Source: Patescibacteria group bacterium (GTDB taxonomy: Bacteria > Patescibacteriota > WWE3 > 2-01-FULL-39-13). Taken from it: a stretch of 64,000 bases of DNA. The DNA is taken from NCBI GenBank assembly GCA_048499955.1, contig JASNYX010000003.1, forward strand, positions 21,785 to 85,784, read 5' to 3'. A model generated the notes under the pieces. It searched no databases. It saw only the letters and a list, made by a program, of their open reading frames with translations, and was not told where the DNA came from. How positions within the stretch are numbered: the first letter of the stretch is position 1; every line of letters begins with the position of its first letter. The translations under genes were made by a program, and so were the position numbers. Shown in pieces: positions 46,945-56,260 of this stretch.

Positions 46945-49900
46945 CTATAGGAGATAGGGAACTGTTGCACTTTGGCCATTAGTTCGGTTATTTGTTAATG
47001 ATGCATCATATGCAGCTCGTTTTGCAGGGTTTCTGAGCGTGGAAAAAGCTTCATTCATGGCTCTTACTCTATCGGATTGTGCCTGTTGTTCGGCATAAGG
47101 TAGTTCAGCAAAGTCTCTCAACGTCGCTTCGAATTGACTATATGAATCAAGTATTTCGGCATCTGTTGCATCCGGGGATACTCCAAGCCTTTCATAATAA
47201 TTGCGAGGGTCGCTGTTTTGAAGTTCTAACCGGTCGCGTGCTTGTTTGGCCATTTGTTCAACTGTTAGAGGTTGACTTGCCGATGGATTTAGTACGTTCG
47301 AATTCGGGGGTGATATTGTGCTTACAGCAGATGGTGGAATAGTCGGACTAGGTGGTACCACTACTTGTGCAGGTGCTACCGGGTTAGACTGATTGGTTGG
47401 GTTAGCTGGTACCGTCGGAGGAGTTACAACCGAGTTAGGCGAGATAGTAGGATTAGGTGGTGTTATCGGTGGCGTTGCAGCTTGGCTAGGTGGAACAGTC
47501 GGGTTCGTCGGTGTTATCTGAGGTATTACAACCTGGCTAGGTGAAATAGTTGGATTAGCCGGTGCTACCGTGGAGTTTGAAGTCGGATTGGGTTGAGAAA
47601 CCGGATTAGACGGTGTTATCGGTGGCGTTGCAACTTGGCTAGGTGGAACAGGCGGATTAGCCGGTGCGACCGTAGAGGTCGGAACCGAATTGGGTTGAGA
47701 AGGCGGAGTAGTTGGTACAACGATGGGGGCTCTTGGTGGCCTCGAGTTTCCTGATTGCAGGTTACCGGCAATAGGTCTTTGAGATTCTTTCACTTCAGCT
47801 GACATAAGTTTTAATGCGACAAGATCAGGAATCGCACCAAGTACAAGTCCGGCCTCGCTTTTTATGAAGCGATGTAATACGTCGAATAGAGTTGGATTAG
47901 CCGGGCTCTTTTCAAATGCTTCAAGTTGGCTCATAAGTAAATCCAGCTCAGACCTATGAGCAATTAGATCTGCTTGATGTACAAGGACTTCCTGCAATTT
48001 GAGTGCTTCAACGAATCGGGAAATTTTCAGTACCTCTACGTTAGGATGACCCCTCGCATTTCTTGCTGCGTTAGTAATGGCAGCGATTTGATCTTCATTT
48101 AGCCCAATATTCTTGGCAGATTGTGTGACCGGGCTTACATTTTCAGGAGAAACTGCCCACTCGATTAATTTTTCCCATCTGGGGTCTGTATTATTTGCTG
48201 CCGCAAGACCTTGTTCAAGGTTTCCTGTGAATAAATCATTTGAAATGAGTGCCACTATTTGTTCATAAGCTCCTATCTCATTACCACCCGCATATTGGCC
48301 CCTCATGATGATTGCTTTCCACATGTCCATTACCGGCCAACCTTTTTCCTCTGCCAACCGAGCTACTGTATCTCTCATATGAGGTTTAAATTGCAGATCC
48401 TCATATAATTTCGCAATGTTTTGAAGGCGATCCCACCTGCTTCCCGCACCCTGGCCTCCTGCATCAAGGTATTCTTTCCAGTTGTCTCCAAATATTTGCT
48501 GTGTTTGATCTATCACATCTTCGCTTTTGTAGGTTAATCCGTCTAAAAATCTTCTGGCGACATGTCTTACTTTCTCTGATCCTTCTCCCAATTGTTCGGT
48601 GATATTAGAAAAGGGATCTTCAATGCTTAAGTCAGGTAATGGGGTATTTGATCCGTCTGATCTTGGCAAATTATCCAAAATTAATTGCCTTATATCGATT
48701 TCATTGCCATTCACGGTAACCTTTAACTCATGAGGTAAGAGATTTTTGAGATTTTCCAGATGAATGTTTAAATCTAAGTCTTCTTCTGATATTCCCCATT
48801 GTTCGAGCAGGTTATCTGAAGACTTAATTTGAGCCACCAGTTTTTCGATTGCATCTGTTGCGGTTTCAATATGATGTGAATTATCTTCAATAGCGGTATT
48901 TACATGTTCCATAACATTTTGAACATGAGGTTTTAGAGCTTCGTATGTACTGTCTATGTAGTTTCTGTCCCCTGTGAAAACATCCATCCATCCTGGGGCA
49001 TTTTCAACAACCGATTGTAAGGTTTGAGCGTAGATTAAAGATTTTGCAGCCCTATCGATCGCTCCGGCTCTTGAATATGCGACTCCGGTTTCCTTTATGA
49101 TTCGAGTGGCTTCGGTTCTAGCTGCTTTGAAAATATAATTGTTAAATTGGTCGTCGATTTCTTGGTCAGTGCTCCCGACCATTTGGTTTGCGATTTGGGT
49201 TCTTATGGCAGCACTTGAAGTTACAAGCAGATTTGCTCGTTTGGCAATTATTTCAAAGTCGGGTTCTCTTTCAAATCCTGAAAGAATTGATTGTACGTAT
49301 AATTTTTTTGCAATTTCAGACATTCCGACGGGATCACTGACGGCAAGTGCTTCGATTTGTGGATATAACGGTGTGTTAAGGTCGATGTTTCTATCTTGTA
49401 GGTATTGGTCAATTTCGGTATCACGCTCTACGATTCTAAATCCACCTTTACCCATGAATCCTGATTCTAGTGTTCTTGTTTTGAGGCCGGATTTCACCAC
49501 ATAGTTCCATACGTTAGAAATAGTTCTTCGGAAAACATTCTTATTCTTGTTTTCTTCGGCTGTTTTGCTTCGTTCTATTTCTTTTCGGTATAAGGTAGCT
49601 GCTCCTTCTCCTGTTTCTGCGTTTATCTTTGAGTATTCTTGTTTGGCTTTCCATTGACCCAGAAGGGCTCCGGCAGCTACACCAACTAAGGGTCCTGAAT
49701 ATTCAAGTGCTTGTGCACTGGCTTCGATTCCGGTGCTAATCGCTACAGGAACGGCAACTTCTACGAGTTTTCTACCAACTTCAATTTTACTAGGCCGGTC
49801 ATGTTCGACTGGGGGTCTAGTGTATGAAGATTCCAACCCTCGTAAAAAGCTATCAAATGAGGCATTTGCAGATCCTCCGGGCAAAAGACCTTCTTGTCTG

Positions 49901-49995
49901 ACTATTTCAGTGCCGATGCTTCTGACCGCATTTCCATTTGCAGGAGTTTTTTCTTCCTTATGTATAAGGTCTGAAAGGTGAGTCCTATATTCCAT
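46945..49995 (-). CDS. Large (1016 aa) mostly alpha-helical protein with a Pro/Thr-rich tandem-repeat region and a C-terminal J-like domain lacking HPD
   Basis: C-terminus NYYERLGVSPDATDAEI...RNPAKRAAYD matches J-domain helices I-II and III-IV, but HPD is replaced by ELP. Confidence 0.5.
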   Translation of the reverse strand: MEYRTHLSDLIHKEEKTPANGNAVRSIGTEIVRQEGLLPGGSANASFDSFLRGLESSYTRPPVEHDRPSKIEVGRKLVEVAVPVAISTGIEASAQALEYSGPLVGVAAGALLGQWKAKQEYSKINAETGEGAATLYRKEIERSKTAEENKNKNVFRRTISNVWNYVVKSGLKTRTLESGFMGKGGFRIVERDTEIDQYLQDRNIDLNTPLYPQIEALAVSDPVGMSEIAKKLYVQSILSGFEREPDFEIIAKRANLLVTSSAAIRTQIANQMVGSTDQEIDDQFNNYIFKAARTEATRIIKETGVAYSRAGAIDRAAKSLIYAQTLQSVVENAPGWMDVFTGDRNYIDSTYEALKPHVQNVMEHVNTAIEDNSHHIETATDAIEKLVAQIKSSDNLLEQWGISEEDLDLNIHLENLKNLLPHELKVTVNGNEIDIRQLILDNLPRSDGSNTPLPDLSIEDPFSNITEQLGEGSEKVRHVARRFLDGLTYKSEDVIDQTQQIFGDNWKEYLDAGGQGAGSRWDRLQNIAKLYEDLQFKPHMRDTVARLAEEKGWPVMDMWKAIIMRGQYAGGNEIGAYEQIVALISNDLFTGNLEQGLAAANNTDPRWEKLIEWAVSPENVSPVTQSAKNIGLNEDQIAAITNAARNARGHPNVEVLKISRFVEALKLQEVLVHQADLIAHRSELDLLMSQLEAFEKSPANPTLFDVLHRFIKSEAGLVLGAIPDLVALKLMSAEVKESQRPIAGNLQSGNSRPPRAPIVVPTTPPSQPNSVPTSTVAPANPPVPPSQVATPPITPSNPVSQPNPTSNSTVAPANPTISPSQVVIPQITPTNPTVPPSQAATPPITPPNPTISPNSVVTPPTVPANPTNQSNPVAPAQVVVPPSPTIPPSAVSTISPPNSNVLNPSASQPLTVEQMAKQARDRLELQNSDPRNYYERLGVSPDATDAEILDSYSQFEATLRDFAELPYAEQQAQSDRVRAMNEAFSTLRNPAKRAAYDASLTNNRTNGQSATVPYLL
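47298..47793 (-). repeat. Imperfect tandem DNA repeats (period about 150 nt) encoding PPxxPTxP / ATPPITP motifs
   Basis: GGTGTTATCGGTGGCGTTGCA(G/A)CTTGGCTAGGTGGAACA recurs at about 47461 and 47611 (plus-strand text). Confidence 0.7.
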
Positions 49996-50470
49996 ACTTA
50001 AGCTTAAATTCTGAGTACCTATTTAATGCATCTTTTAGGTTTTGCAGATTATCATCAATATAGGAGCTTTCAATATCAAAAATAATTTTTTCGCCTTCGT
50101 TTTGAACAGGTTCTTCTCTATGTTGTATTAGTTGGAAAACATCTTTTAGCTGTTGAATAAACGCTTGTTTTTTTACGGTTGCGGCAGATTTATCGACATA
50201 GTCGTTAAAATCAGGAAACAGCTCGAGTATGTACGTTTGGATTTCGATAGGGTCGGGAGATGTATCGAGTTTCTGCTCGATTTCAGTGATAACTTTAGGG
50301 CTAATATTATTTAATGTTAAATAAGCAGTAAAGGCTTTATGTATTGAGGCTTTAGTAAGTGTAGTAAGTGCCAGTGATTTTTGTTCATCTGAGAGCTTCA
50401 CTCCCAATAAATCAAAAATATTTTGTTCCAGAAAAAACTTTTCAACTTCGGTTAAATTTGGGGCAGGCAT
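49985..50470 (-). CDS. Hypothetical protein (161 aa), translationally coupled upstream of the 1016-aa gene
   Basis: ORF overlaps the start of 46945..49995 by 11 nt. Confidence 0.35.
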   Translation of the reverse strand: MPAPNLTEVEKFFLEQNIFDLLGVKLSDEQKSLALTTLTKASIHKAFTAYLTLNNISPKVITEIEQKLDTSPDPIEIQTYILELFPDFNDYVDKSAATVKKQAFIQQLKDVFQLIQHREEPVQNEGEKIIFDIESSYIDDNLQNLKDALNRYSEFKLKYGI

Positions 50471-52071: not shown

Positions 52072-53457
52072 ATGTCTGATAACAAATATTATATTACTAC
52101 CCCCATATACTATGCGAATGATGTTCCCCATATAGGACACACAGGGACAACTGTTTTTGCAGATATTATTGCAAGATATCAAAGAATTAGTGGGAAAGAA
52201 GTATTCTTTTTAACAGGAAACGATGAGCATGGTGAAAAAGTCGCATTAGCGGCTCAGAAGGTCGGAGAATCTCCTCAGCAATTTGTTGATGAATTAGCTC
52301 TTGAGTGGCAGAAATACTGGGAAAAACTGAACATAAGTAATGATCATTTTTTCAGAACTACAGCCGAAGGGCATAAAAAAGTTGTTCATGATTTATTAAC
52401 CAAACTTTGGGAAAAAGGTGACATTTATAAGGATGTATACAAAGGTATCTACTGTGTTGGATGTGAAGAATTTAAAGCAGAGAAAGACTTGGTCGACGGA
52501 AAATGCCCTGAACATAGACCCGACCAAGTTTACTACCGGGAAGAAGAGAACTACTTTTTCAGAATCACCAAGTACCTACCAGAAGTGAAGAAGTTAATCG
52601 AATCCGGAGAATTTATTGTCGAACCCGATAACAAAAGAAACGAAATGTTGTCGCGTTTGAGTGGTGATATTAACGATCTGTCGATTTCCAGGCCCAACTT
52701 GAAGTGGGGGATAACGATTCCTTGGGACGAGAATCATGTTACATACGTTTGGGTTGAAGCCTTAATGAACTATTACTCTGCAACTAAAATTTGTAATAAA
52801 GAGGATTTTTGGCCTGCAAATGTACACTTCGTCGGCAAAGGCATTAACTGGTTCCATTCAGTAATTTGGCCATCGATGTTACTTGCATTGGAGTTGCCTC
52901 TTCCTAAAAAAGTATTCGTTCACGGATACTACAATGTTGACGGTAAAAAGATGGGTAAATCTTTAGGTAACGTAATTTCTCCTCAAGATCTTCTTGAAAA
53001 ATATGGAGTTGATGGGACGAGGTATCTTCTTTGTGCAAGTATGCCTTATGAAAACGATAGCGATGTGAGCTTCACTTGGTTTGATCAAAAATATAATGCT
53101 GATTTAGCTAATGGGTTGGGAAACCTTGTTTCCCGAGTGGCCAAGCTGGCTGAAGGGCAGACATTTGAGGTTGTGACAAGTGTTGATTTAAGTATTTACG
53201 AGAAATTCAAGTTACACGAAGTTGTATCGTATTCAAGTAGGTTGGTTGCTGAAGCAAACGAATATCTAAACAAAGAAGAACCATGGAAGAAGTCCGGTGA
53301 TCAAAAAAACACGGTGCTTAAAGAAGTTATTGGGAAAATTGTCGATATTGCCAGACTATTGGAACCTATTACTCCCGAGGCCTCCGGAACGATTATCAGA
53401 ACCTTCTCAGGGAAACTATCTATTTCGCCCGTATCGGCACTGTATTTGCGGATCTGA
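52072..53457 (+). CDS. metG: Methionyl-tRNA synthetase (compact form)
   Basis: HIGH (PHIGHTGT). KMSKS (KMGKSLGN). CxxC...CPEH zinc knuckle in CP domain. Confidence 0.9.
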   Translation: MSDNKYYITTPIYYANDVPHIGHTGTTVFADIIARYQRISGKEVFFLTGNDEHGEKVALAAQKVGESPQQFVDELALEWQKYWEKLNISNDHFFRTTAEGHKKVVHDLLTKLWEKGDIYKDVYKGIYCVGCEEFKAEKDLVDGKCPEHRPDQVYYREEENYFFRITKYLPEVKKLIESGEFIVEPDNKRNEMLSRLSGDINDLSISRPNLKWGITIPWDENHVTYVWVEALMNYYSATKICNKEDFWPANVHFVGKGINWFHSVIWPSMLLALELPLPKKVFVHGYYNVDGKKMGKSLGNVISPQDLLEKYGVDGTRYLLCASMPYENDSDVSFTWFDQKYNADLANGLGNLVSRVAKLAEGQTFEVVTSVDLSIYEKFKLHEVVSYSSRLVAEANEYLNKEEPWKKSGDQKNTVLKEVIGKIVDIARLLEPITPEASGTIIRTFSGKLSISPVSALYLRI

Positions 53458-53988
53458 GAATTCTCTCGTTTTGTAGTGCTCTATTACCTCTTTAGCAATT
53501 GCATCAACGTCGAGAAGGGGAATACTCCAAGCTCCCTGAGTCATTGGTAATATTAGTCTTTCGTTAGCGATTGTAACCTGATAGTTGATTTGCGTAGCAC
53601 ATCTGATCAATCCGGTCGGATTTCGACTGCGATGACTTAGACCTATTAAAACTTCGGAACAACCGCCATTATTAACACTTTGGGGGTCTTCAAGAATATC
53701 GAAAATGTAACCCGGCCTATGTGTGCCATTTACCAGACAAACCATCTTTAAGGATTCGGCACAAGCTTCGCCGAATTTTGTGTCAACTTCGGGATTTACC
53801 TTGTAAATGAAGGTTATTAATGGTGCTTCACTAGGAAGACAAACGCCATTCGCTTCCACGCAATAGAAACCCGGTGCTATTACAGGAACTAACCCGTATT
53901 GGTGAACAGGTGCAGTTTCTGTAGTCTGTAAACTATTGTTTAGAGTTGGCTCGACGAGTGCGAGACCTTCTATGGTGTTTGTATTCAT
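53416..53988 (-). CDS. dCTP deaminase/dUTPase-superfamily protein
   Basis: GLSHRSRN..GL and RPGYIFDIL resemble Dcd GRSS.ARLG and DPGF.G motifs. Converges on metG with a 42-nt overlap. Confidence 0.45.
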   Translation of the reverse strand: MNTNTIEGLALVEPTLNNSLQTTETAPVHQYGLVPVIAPGFYCVEANGVCLPSEAPLITFIYKVNPEVDTKFGEACAESLKMVCLVNGTHRPGYIFDILEDPQSVNNGGCSEVLIGLSHRSRNPTGLIRCATQINYQVTIANERLILPMTQGAWSIPLLDVDAIAKEVIEHYKTREFSDPQIQCRYGRNR

Positions 53989-54118
53989 GAAATTAAGTTT
54001 GAGAGGTGTATTTCAGAAATTTATATTGGAGAAATTTTACCACTAGGCCGTCGTTTTTTCTAGGGAAACTGTTTAGGTTGTTGCATGGATCTTCCCCGGC
54101 TTTGTTATACTTGCTACA

Positions 54119-55411
54119 ATGAATGATTCTGTCCAATCTATTTCAGCAAATGGTCGCTCCGGTGGCTTAGATATTAATAAACAAATGGATGATTTAACTA
54201 CACAACCAAATTCGAATACATCAGATGATCAGAATGACGTTCCTGTGATGGCGCCGATTGATCCTGATGCTCCTAATACTAATTATCAGCTTGATGACAT
54301 CGCGGACTTAAATAAAGGTGCAAAGCAGGTTTCGTCTGCGTCGGATAATCTATACTCGGCTAAAGAGCAGGAGGAAATCAAACGGCTTTATGAAAAGGTG
54401 ATGGCTTCTGCTTGTCCTGAAGAATTGAAGAACAGCGTATCAAATATGATCCGGCGTCTGGAGAAAATGACCCGAACAGGCGTTTACTCAAGAGAATACG
54501 ATATTTTGAGTACATATATTGACTGGGTAGTAGATTTCCCATGGACTAACGAAGCAGAAGAAATTCTTGATTTGGATAGAGTAAAAAGCACACTCGACGA
54601 GGCTCACTATGGCCTGGAGACTGTAAAAGAAAGAATCATGGAGTACCTAGCAGTTAGGAAACTTCTAGTAGATAAAAAAGATTTCAAATCAGTTGAAAAA
54701 TCACCTGTTATTTGTATGGTAGGTCTTCAAGGTATTGGTAAAACCACTACGGCGAAGAGTATTGCAAAGGCTTTGAATCGGCCATTCTATCGTATTTCTA
54801 TGGGAGCCATCGGGTCGGTTCTTGAAATTCGTGGTCGCAATAAATCAAATGAAGGTGCGGAACCGGGGCAGATCATCAAAGCTATTGTTAGAACTGGTGT
54901 CAGAAATCCGATAATCCTGCTTGACGAGCTTGATAAAGCCAGCGGTCAGTCAGGATTACTCGCAGATGTTATGGCAACAATGCTTGAAATTCTTGATCCT
55001 GAACAAAACACTTCTTTTAGAGATCATTATCTCGACTATCCGATTGATTTATCGAAAGTGATGTTTGTTGTTTCTGCGAATAAAATCGGAACTTTTAGTG
55101 CAGCACTCATGGATCGTATGGAATTGATCAGAATGCCATCGTACACAGATGAAGAAAAACAGGTTATTGCCAGAGATTATTTGCTTCCAAGGGTTCGTGC
55201 GAATACGGGAATTGAGGAATCTCAACTTGAGTTCTCTCCTGATGTTTGGGCGCTTCTAATAAGACCGCTTGGTTTTGATAGCGGTATTCGTTCACTCCAA
55301 AGAATTGTAGAAAGTATGGCAAGAAAGGCGGCTTTATTGATAGTGAGAGGTCAGACAACCAAGGTTATTATCACACCTGAAAATTTTAGGGATTTTCTGC
55401 CAAAGTATTAA
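54119..55411 (+). CDS. Lon-like AAA+ ATPase lacking N-terminal LON domain and C-terminal peptidase domain
   Basis: YIDWVVDFPWTN...LDEAHYGLETVKERIMEYLAV. Walker A GLQGIGKTT. Walker B ILLDELDK. LEILDPEQN. The ORF stops where the S-K protease domain would begin. Confidence 0.7.
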   Translation: MNDSVQSISANGRSGGLDINKQMDDLTTQPNSNTSDDQNDVPVMAPIDPDAPNTNYQLDDIADLNKGAKQVSSASDNLYSAKEQEEIKRLYEKVMASACPEELKNSVSNMIRRLEKMTRTGVYSREYDILSTYIDWVVDFPWTNEAEEILDLDRVKSTLDEAHYGLETVKERIMEYLAVRKLLVDKKDFKSVEKSPVICMVGLQGIGKTTTAKSIAKALNRPFYRISMGAIGSVLEIRGRNKSNEGAEPGQIIKAIVRTGVRNPIILLDELDKASGQSGLLADVMATMLEILDPEQNTSFRDHYLDYPIDLSKVMFVVSANKIGTFSAALMDRMELIRMPSYTDEEKQVIARDYLLPRVRANTGIEESQLEFSPDVWALLIRPLGFDSGIRSLQRIVESMARKAALLIVRGQTTKVIITPENFRDFLPKY

Positions 55412-55587
55412 TTACCAAGTTCTTCTGCGATTTCTTCGTGAGCTTCAAGTGCCCCCGGAATATCTGGATTTCCAGTACCGAATTTATCTTCAACTTCAGC
55501 TAATGCATGCTCAAGTGGATCTTGTTTGGCCTCTTCGGGATTGACCGGGTCTTTTGTTTCCTCGGCTTCATAATATGTTTCAGACAT
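55408..55587 (-). CDS. Small acidic protein (59 aa), not on the supplied ORF track (below its length cutoff)
   Basis: ATG to TAA with coding-like composition (MSETYYEAEETKDPVNPEEAKQDPLEHALAEVEDKFGTGNPDIPGALEAHEEIAEELGN). Confidence 0.25.
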   Translation of the reverse strand: MSETYYEAEETKDPVNPEEAKQDPLEHALAEVEDKFGTGNPDIPGALEAHEEIAEELGN

Positions 55588-55651
55588 AAAGCCATGATAC
55601 TATAAGGACGTTTTTTAGTCCAATTTCTTTCATTCCTGATACACTTAGAAA

Positions 55652-56260
55652 ATGGATGCTGCCCATTATAACTCGGGTGAAAATAGTACCCGTGAAACTT
55701 TTTCGCCCGAAGCCGATCAAATTCGTGCTGCTTTTCAAACAAGATACTCCGAGACTTACGGCTCAGGGGACATGGTCGATAATTTAATACAGGTAGGCAG
55801 TAATACCGTTGTTGTCGAATCAGATTTGAATTGGCTACGTAACGAAGCGGTAAGGGTTTATCAACAGAAACTTGCAGAAAATCATTCAGGTATAAGCGAT
55901 GAAGATTTGCAAGATCAGGTACTTCTCTATATGCAAGAAGCCCTTTCATTAGATGCGATGCTTAGAATGGAGGTGGAATTTCCTCAAATAACCCGTTTCG
56001 GTATGAGCAACATAACTGCGTTGAATGTTCTGGACAATCATGGATTGTTATTTAGTGAGGGGGATTTGGGTGCTCAAATTATGGAAAAGCAAAGAGCACA
56101 TAACGCTACAACCAGTGTTCCACCGCATTATAAAGTAGCTCCGGTTGTTGCCGGAATAAGGAGCATCTCTAACGATAATAGCCCAAGCACGGATAGCAAG
56201 CAGACCCAAGGTGGTTATGGTCGAAGGCATCCGTTCAGTGGTGCTTATGAAACTCAGTAG
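55652..56260 (+). CDS. Hypothetical protein
   Basis: ORF of 202 aa. Confidence 0.35.
   Translation: MDAAHYNSGENSTRETFSPEADQIRAAFQTRYSETYGSGDMVDNLIQVGSNTVVVESDLNWLRNEAVRVYQQKLAENHSGISDEDLQDQVLLYMQEALSLDAMLRMEVEFPQITRFGMSNITALNVLDNHGLLFSEGDLGAQIMEKQRAHNATTSVPPHYKVAPVVAGIRSISNDNSPSTDSKQTQGGYGRRHPFSGAYETQ

Follow-up and report, generated by a model that had tools for sequence, protein, structure and literature searches.

We analyzed a gene for a short relative of the Lon protease in a 64,000-nucleotide stretch of DNA from a Patescibacteria group bacterium (contig JASNYX010000003.1, positions 21,785 to 85,784 of the forward strand), referred to here as the window. The gene encodes a 430-aa protein that contains the ATPase module of Lon and neither of the domains that flank this module in the protease, and it is almost certainly a conserved, active Lon motor without a protease. 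A first-pass annotation of the window had described the product as a Lon-like AAA+ module and had left three choices: a split lon, a degraded lon, or a stand-alone protein derived from Lon. The features of the gene and its product are listed below with their window coordinates; the counts refer to homologues with the same architecture, which we call short forms.

54119..55411, + strand: coding sequence of the stand-alone Lon-type AAA+ ATPase; 430 aa, ATG start, stop codon TAA at 55409-55411 (list of open reading frames (ORFs), Pfam and PDB matches)
54119..54142, + strand: N-terminal peptide MNDSVQSI; clade consensus M-x-[DE]-x-V-[QR]-S-[IL]
54119..54328, + strand: disordered Asp/Asn/Ser-rich extension, aa 1-70 (predicted local distance difference test score (pLDDT) of AlphaFold <50)
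54338..54688, + strand: helical region, aa 74-190, corresponding to the end of the LonA coiled-coil helix and the three-helix bundle (NTD3H) above the AAA+ ring; aligns with E. coli Lon ~250-350 and with B. subtilis Lon
54722..54748, + strand: Walker A, GLQGIGKTT with K208 (aa 202-210); Lys in 179/179 short forms
54830..54868, + strand: pore loop 1, RGRNKSNEGAEPG; RGHRRTY[IV]G[AS]MPG in canonical Lon
54911..54937, + strand: Walker B, IILLDELDK with D269 and E270 (aa 265-273); Asp and Glu in 179/179
55079..55081, + strand: sensor-1 Asn321, aligned with E. coli N473; 179/179
55115..55117, + strand: arginine finger Arg333, aligned with E. coli R484; 179/179
55139..55408, + strand: AAA+ lid (small) domain, Lon_lid at aa 362-415, with sensor-2 Arg391 at 55289-55291; Arg in 178/179

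The reading frame runs through 430 codons without interruption, and an independent Logan contig encodes the identical protein. A Pfam scan of the protein identified AAA (PF00004) at residues 198-337 (E 1.7e-18, 67.8 bits, cutoff 21.2) and Lon_lid (PF22667) at residues 362-415 (E 1.2e-7, 31.7 bits, cutoff 27), and found neither LON_substr_bdg (PF02190) nor Lon_C (PF05362). The NCBIfam profile TIGR00763 'lon' was matched only over positions 249-570 of its 795, with 355 bits and under the cutoff of 608, and NF008053 gave 244 bits against a cutoff of 891. The top sequence matches in the PDB were B. subtilis LonA (3m6a) and human LONP1 (E ~1e-81, query residues 85-429), and NTD3H, the AAA+ large domain and the Lon-type lid together are 38-42% identical to LonA. 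In a tblastn search of the window with E. coli Lon, only residues 250-579 of the query aligned, comprising the NTD3H helices and the AAA+ module, and the window protein ended about 5 residues short of the expected start of the S16 protease domain. Its C-terminus, ...ENFRDFLPKY, stops at the position of the LonA ATPase-protease linker. The first-pass annotation had thus placed both limits of the similarity correctly, from the end of the N-terminal helical region to the point where the protease domain would begin; the motifs that it quoted are all present, and its view of the N-terminus as low-complexity Asp/Asn/Ser-rich sequence in place of a LON domain is borne out (residues 1-70 are predicted to be disordered, and the first 80 residues include 13 Asp, 10 Asn and 10 Ser). 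Its interval of 54119-55590 has the correct start; the coding sequence ends at 55411, and the remainder takes in a convergent 59-aa ORF.

An AlphaFold model built on 51 family sequences had an overall pLDDT of 84, was confident over residues 74-430, and exceeded 90 across most of residues 80-430, including helices at 74-96, 101-117, 123-139, 152-162 and 167-185. The top 50 Foldseek matches in the PDB were all Lon, LONP1 and LonA being the best, and the comparison with the E. coli Lon AAA+ fragment 6n2i gave a target-normalised TM-score of 0.89 with a root-mean-square deviation of 2.6 Å. The predicted fold is that of the Lon AAA+ module, including NTD3H. Within NTD3H, E. coli Y294 and W297 are retained as Y133 and W136. 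We also considered a family-specific Tyr in place of the NTD3H pore residue corresponding to E. coli M284, and dropped it when the MAFFT alignment placed a variable T, L, S or M at this position.

The catalytic residues of the motor are nearly invariant. Equivalents of E. coli K362, D423, E424, N473, R484 and R542 were present in 178-179 of 179 short forms and in 93/93 canonical Lons, and 46 alignment positions were conserved and identical between the two groups. The arginine finger lies in DRME (residues 332-335) and the sensor-2 Arg in GIRSL (residues 389-393). Walker A has a signature of its own in the short forms, GL[QVAP]GxGKT[TS], as opposed to GPPG in canonical Lon. The motor is under strong purifying selection. 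Because an arginine finger acts in trans across subunits, a ring oligomer is implied, and we infer that the protein probably assembles into a hexameric ring with ATP hydrolysis.

Pore loop 1 showed a different pattern. In structures of Lon, Y398 and I399 form a pincer that grips the translocating chain, and neighbouring arginines are braced by the PS1-beta-hairpin (PMC7239648). R395, T397, Y398 and G400 (E. coli numbering) were found in 92-93 of 93 canonical Lons and were replaced or variable in the short forms, where the R395 position was Ser, Asn or Asp and the I399 position Pro or Glu. Tyr398 was present in all 93 canonical Lons compared with 10/167 short forms, the latter having otherwise Phe (35), Ile (32), Leu (25), Val (15), His (13) or polar residues at this position. 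The Met402 position, in turn, was Glu in 174/179 short forms. The window protein has N244 at the Tyr398 position and E245 at the I399 position. Its clade has the loop RG[RK][ND][KR][AS]-x-EGAEPG, with Ile, Val, Leu, Asn, Ser, Phe or Gly at x; within the 90% cluster of the window protein, which has Asn there, one member has Ser instead. The framework of the loop is thus fixed, acidic and specific to the family, but the amino acid that performs the mechanical work in Lon is no longer under constraint.

We looked for the missing domains near the gene with hidden Markov models (HMMs) of the Lon protease (P) and N-terminal (N) domains, which were built from 30 canonical Lons and used at E values up to 1 on the window and on ±10 kb of 62 related loci (1.03 Mb in all). 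Neither domain was detected in any frame of the 64-kb window or in the 62 related loci, and tblastn with E. coli Lon likewise found neither in the window; the earlier statement that no peptidase-domain ORF follows on either strand therefore holds for the whole window. There was also no peptidase gene among the conserved neighbours at the related loci. We therefore rejected a partner protease encoded close by.

To determine how widely this architecture occurs, we searched a collection of 5.8 billion proteins and inspected the best 120 matches. All of these were 260-628 aa long with AAA and Lon_lid only, and any label that they had was either 'AAA family ATPase [Patescibacteria / WWE3]' or the erroneous 'ATP-dependent Lon protease'. 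In GTDB species genomes, a scan gave at least 50 short forms of 314-472 aa (one ending at a contig edge) with no N or P domain; the window's nearest GTDB relatives were missing from the matches listed. The matches listed jumped abruptly from short forms to canonical LonA proteins of 765-876 aa from other phyla, with no more than 43% identity, and the titles of the short-form records among them named WWE3, Saccharibacteria and Nomura-, Shapiro-, Ames-, Levy-, Roizman-, Davies- and Woesebacteria. Altogether, more than 170 relatives from Patescibacteria, for which another name is the candidate phyla radiation (CPR), have the same truncated architecture with the same end point, and the C-terminus lies 2-4 residues past N-F-x-x-Y-L in 150/164 members. 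The window protein fits the family core of ~350 aa, with GLQGIGKTT, the loop end ...GAEPG ([AS]-E-P-G) and the terminus ...NFRDFLPKY.

A neighbor-joining (NJ) tree on corrected p-distances, without an outgroup, was made from the AAA+ sequences of 99 non-redundant short forms, 80 canonical Lons and 47 tandem-module Lons. The short forms were a single clade in 100/100 bootstraps, and the p-distance among them (0.48) was similar to that among the canonical Lons sampled (0.46). Because there is one clade with a divergence equal to that of canonical Lons, a single old loss of both flanking domains is suggested. The short form is, as far as these comparisons indicate, an intact, ancient and vertically inherited Patescibacteria family derived from LonA. 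Two of the checks proposed with the first-pass annotation, a survey of the relatives' architecture and a phylogeny of the AAA+ module, thus support a common truncated form across many Patescibacteria lineages, and none of the relatives carries a contiguous intact lon at this locus. Of the three choices that it left, a degraded lon is contradicted by more than 170 proteins with the same architecture, mostly the same end and invariant ATPase residues; a split lon is unsupported within the 1.03 Mb searched; and a stand-alone Lon-derived ATPase stands.

About 20 metagenome-assembled GTDB species representatives with a short form bear the title 'uncultured Gammaproteobacteria/Pseudomonadales', and one bears that of 'Methanoperedens' (loci L024, L026, L028, L031, L034, L036-L040, L043, L044, L047, L049, L051, L053-L055, L058, L060, L065 and L068). 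Because their proteins share 54-79% identity with the short forms from named CPR (Microgenomates) lineages and lie in the CPR gene order, these records are most likely mislabelled bins. For the window itself, the encoded RpoD has 71% identity to RpoD from a WWE3 bacterium, and the source is therefore a Patescibacteria member related to WWE3.

The N-terminal extension is specific to the clade of the window protein; forms of roughly 350 aa elsewhere in the family are without it. Close relatives (P0002-P0020) have the N-terminal octapeptide motif in common, which confirms the start codon, and then a polar, low-complexity linker that could not be aligned and that varies from ~50 to 300 aa among relatives.

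We compared the gene order at the related loci. In ~35 of 55 loci, the genes were arranged on a single strand as nusA-infB-x-rpsO-pnp-[gene]-(nudix)-(udg)-rnj-ftsK-rodZ-like-small transmembrane protein, with median gaps of 48 nt from pnp to the gene and 24 nt from the gene to rnj. The ancestral position is rpsO-pnp-[short Lon ATPase]-rnj-ftsK, and the clade of the window is rearranged: its order is rmuC, metG, a 190-aa orphan ORF, the Lon-type ATPase, a 202-aa orphan ORF, uvrD and ftsK, and ftsK and the small membrane-protein gene that follows are all that it keeps of the family gene order. The pnp...rnj...ftsK backbone is also present in Firmicutes and Actinobacteria, where it is not known to include a short Lon ATPase. 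Because the backbone exists elsewhere without the gene, the synteny indicates vertical inheritance and probable co-transcription, and not function. The pnp-rnj position, the remodelled pore loop and the conserved motif at the start of the low-complexity N-terminus had all been missed in the first reading of the window.

The WWE3-like 'GLQG' subfamily has a further gene between pnp and the ATPase gene; its product, of 300-344 aa, carries a C4 zinc ribbon at the N-terminus and a single transmembrane helix. The stop codon of this gene lies -14 to +15 nt from the ATPase start in WWE3-like genomes, indicating translational coupling, and the protein may serve as a tether at the membrane or as an adaptor. 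Around the window gene, tblastn and a scan for the Cys motif revealed no counterpart. The zinc-ribbon family as a whole, whose members are 300-409 aa long, has a C-terminal domain of ~200 aa without a Pfam match and is always encoded just downstream of pnp. One Roizmanbacteria-like subclade has groES-groEL divergently upstream of the short Lon ATPase, in place of pnp, and in further subclades the ATPase gene adjoins a sugar kinase. The loci concerned are as follows.

L004:9057-10001 (+), L011:5094-5996 (+), L009:5024-5998 (+), L015, L016, L019 and L020: zinc-ribbon membrane proteins
L002:13431-14660 (-): distant relative of the zinc-ribbon protein
L031:3154-5142, L032, L035, L036, L044, L051 and L061: divergent groES-groEL

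Immediately around the window gene there are three orphan ORFs and two candidate signals.

53416-53988, - strand: orphan ORF of 190 aa, overlapping the 3' end of metG by 42 nt
53999..54027, + strand: sigma-70-like promoter match, TTGAGA-17-TATATT, 10/12, ~90 nt upstream of the ATG (consensus scan; weak, with the number of matches in the region at chance expectation)
55408..55587, - strand: acidic orphan ORF of 59 aa, overlapping the ATPase stop codon by 4 nt and containing the + strand terminator-like hairpin
55534..55549, + strand: terminator-like hairpin, then TCTTTTGTTT, 123 nt past the stop and within the opposite-strand 59-aa ORF (consensus scan; weak, 3 found compared with 2.1 expected)
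55652-56260, + strand: orphan ORF of 202 aa

None of the three ORFs matched Pfam, and none had a homologue at the related loci, the closest of which were searched at E up to 10. With no counterparts in the related loci, they were rejected as conserved partners of the ATPase, and they may be lineage-specific genes or miscalls. The convergent 59-aa ORF, to which attention had been drawn previously, does exist; it is not conserved and is probably irrelevant. Membership in an anti-phage defence system was also rejected: PADLOC gave weak generic AAA matches only (the best being DolB, E 2.6e-7, over the P-loop), and the neighbourhood is a housekeeping one. Farther away in the window, a 1016-aa protein (46945-49995, - strand) has as its only recognisable domain a C-terminal DnaJ (J) domain at residues 932-997 and is unusually large for a reduced genome. 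It is followed by a 161-aa ORF (49985-50470) with an 11-nt overlap. A 761-aa ORF (26844-29129, - strand) matched no Pfam family at E values up to 1e-4.

The published complete genome of Southlakia epibionticum, a cultured Saccharibacterium, provides a comparison with another CPR lineage. PF05362 is listed there only in ComM/YifB and PF02190 never (PMC10633639 Table S2), and thus the organism is without a canonical Lon; it has ClpP, a ClpC-like ATPase and FtsH (PMC10633639). In S. epibionticum ML1, SEML1_0093-0096 are, consecutively, pnp, a membrane-protein gene, rnj and ftsK, with no Lon-type ATPase there (PMC10633639 Tables S1 and S2), and the slot between pnp and rnj is filled by the non-essential membrane protein, which has DUF4064 (PMC10633639). 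The window protein matches PF07724, which is listed for S. epibionticum only in two Clp-type ATPases (PMC10633639). Because the gene is absent at pnp-rnj and PF07724 occurs only in the Clp-type ATPases, the short Lon ATPase has probably been lost in S. epibionticum.

What might such a protein do? Taking the data as a whole, we lean modestly towards the view that it is a functional member of a CPR family derived from LonA, acting as a stand-alone ATPase that remodels proteins. A LonA ancestor would have lost the N-terminal substrate-binding domain and the C-terminal S16 protease, leaving NTD3H, the AAA+ large domain and the lid. The protein would form a Lon-like hexameric ring and hydrolyze ATP. 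Because there is no proteolytic chamber, it would be an ATP-dependent remodeller or chaperone (a holdase, a disaggregase or an unfoldase without degradation) and not a protease. We consider the specific proposal of protein remodelling without degradation to be evenly balanced. With the Tyr-(Ile/Val) pincer and the tandem Arg of pore loop 1 lost and a fixed Glu gained, the grip on substrates would probably be different or weak, and an acidic pore could favour basic clients. The choice of substrates may have been handed elsewhere, in the clade of the window to the disordered tail tipped with MxxxV[QR]SI, and in the WWE3-like relatives to the translationally coupled zinc-ribbon membrane protein. 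The pointers to proteostasis are the descent from Lon, the chaperone role of LONP1, which is documented as independent of its protease (PMC7801493), and the groESL neighbourhood in one subclade.

Several points weigh against this proposal. A hexamer without a protease ring is an assumption. The Tyr that drives translocation in Lon (PMC7239648) is not conserved, with Asn, Ser or Gly in some close relatives, and this argues against classical threading; the predicted acidity of the pore points the same way. The gene has pnp, rnj, udg, ftsK and uvrD as its conserved neighbours, whose products act on nucleic acids and not on proteins; this also points away from classical threading. Finally, S. epibionticum appears to be without the gene at pnp-rnj, which would make it dispensable in at least one CPR lineage.

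We weighed protein remodelling against other explanations. That the gene is a pseudogene or an artefact of mutation, frameshift or misassembly is hardly conceivable. The match to only the middle third of Lon and the sub-cutoff score with the NCBIfam lon profile would fit such a remnant, but the identical protein on an independent Logan contig and more than 170 homologues with the same ends and invariant catalytic residues do not. There is, in addition, no remnant of a P or N domain in any frame, and the stop codon is TAA, so read-through under genetic code 25 does not apply. It seems improbable, although much less so, that the protein belongs to a split Lon, or delivers unfolded substrates to a protease whose gene lies elsewhere (a stand-alone S16 protease, ClpP or FtsH) and docks on it as ClpX does with ClpP. 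Separate peptidase partners are common for AAA+ unfoldases, ClpP and FtsH are present in CPR genomes such as that of S. epibionticum, and the protein ends exactly at the ATPase-protease linker, with a fairly conserved tail, ...[FY]LP-x-[YWL]. However, neither the window nor the ±10 kb around the gene at the 62 loci contained a Lon P domain, no protease was among the conserved neighbours, the sole Lon_C-like domain in the one complete CPR proteome inspected is that of ComM, and the threading Tyr of the pore loop is not conserved. The tail also lacks a fixed C-terminal residue, many members ending in ...LPK or ...LPQ. An HbYX-like docking motif at the C-terminus was considered separately and is unsupported: the position of the tail is conserved, but the final residue may be Y, W, L, K or Q.

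A role outside general chaperoning is still unlikely but deserves somewhat more weight. The protein could be a non-threading, ATP-dependent switch or assembly factor for RNA or DNA turnover that is co-transcribed with PNPase and RNase J, and it is similarly unlikely that its targets would be a degradosome-like complex or nucleoid or ribosomal proteins. The arrangement rpsO-pnp-[gene]-(nudix/udg)-rnj-ftsK on one strand at ~35/55 loci, with gaps of 48 and 24 nt, favours such a role, as do uvrD and ftsK downstream of the gene in the window, the degenerate pore loop, which would fit a protein that does not translocate, and the fact that the Lon lid domain binds DNA. On the other hand, pnp...rnj...ftsK occurs in Firmicutes and Actinobacteria without the gene and in S. 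epibionticum with another gene, so the position may be simply inherited order. Other subclades have the gene beside groESL or a sugar kinase, and the fixed Glu residues of the pore would probably be unfavourable for binding nucleic acids. A further reading is doubtful but somewhat more probable: the Lon motor may have been kept across the CPR as an ATP-driven switch with an acidic, Tyr-less pore, engaged in neither proteolysis nor classical threading, co-transcribed with PNPase and RNase J, and remodelling one particular basic client or complex. Candidate clients, with the same degree of doubt, would be proteins of the ribosome or nucleoid, or an assembly for RNA decay. If this were true, Lon-derived ATPases would gain a new functional class, and these minimal cells may have no other Lon relative.

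Regardless of its precise function, the family bears on protein quality control in minimal, host-dependent cells, where this has barely been studied, and a quarter of bacterial diversity may belong to the CPR radiation. By definition, Lon is an ATPase fused to a protease, and the short form keeps only the motor. With its frozen catalytic residues and freely varying gripping loop, it is an experiment of nature on the role of a Lon ATPase in the absence of proteolysis. Because the genes now carry the label 'ATP-dependent Lon protease' at JGI or the generic 'AAA family ATPase' at NCBI, Lon proteolysis may be wrongly credited to them when the metabolism of CPR organisms is reconstructed. We found no relevant description of a protease-less Lon, or of Lon in CPR, Patescibacteria or Saccharibacteria, in the literature searched, and no curated NCBIfam or Pfam family for this architecture. 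Thus, the fold and enzymology are familiar, the family is widespread and so far undescribed, and the function of a stand-alone Lon motor appears to have been described by nobody.

Among the closest known systems is LonA (MEROPS S16; E. coli Lon, B. subtilis LonA and LONP1), with which the short form has in common the Walker A and B motifs, sensor 1, the Arg finger, sensor 2 and the PS1-beta-hairpin Tyr. It differs in lacking the LON N-terminal domain, the Ser-Lys protease domain and the R395/T397/Y398/G400 signature, in having Glu for Met402 and GL[QVAP]G for GPPG, and in the position of its gene beside pnp and rnj; canonical lon usually adjoins clpX. The window protein is not a LonA, as it has no S16 domain, no LON N domain, a sub-cutoff profile score and no pore-loop Tyr. 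Among the other variants, LonB, LonBA and LonC are likewise members of the Lon family with altered accessory elements, but LonB has a membrane insert and LonC a dead ATPase, whereas the short form has intact ATPase motifs and no protease. The described subfamilies A, B, BA and C all keep the protease domain (PMC9569914), and LonC is presented as a Lon relative that keeps a chaperone-like role after the loss of one activity (PMC13069640).

ClpX and HslU, which belong to the HCLR clade as the short form does, are likewise single-ring AAA+ proteins encoded apart from any peptidase. Both can act as chaperones alone. They keep an aromatic pore-1 loop and elements for docking on ClpP or HslV, whereas no docking motif was identified in the short form, and sequence similarity to them is marginal (NCBIfam ClpX E 3e-5, HslU E 4.5e-3). 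Our searches also recovered tandem-AAA Lon proteins of 889-1829 aa (P0127-P0144, P0149, P0151, P0166, P0170 and P0175), in which the modules are followed by a single S16 domain; P0127, from Candidatus Dependentiae, has three modules, and a multi-ring Lon appears to be unusual. Like the short form, these proteins are non-canonical and without an N domain. In contrast to it, they have two or three AAA+ modules and a GPPG-type Walker A, keep the protease, and fall outside the short-form clade.

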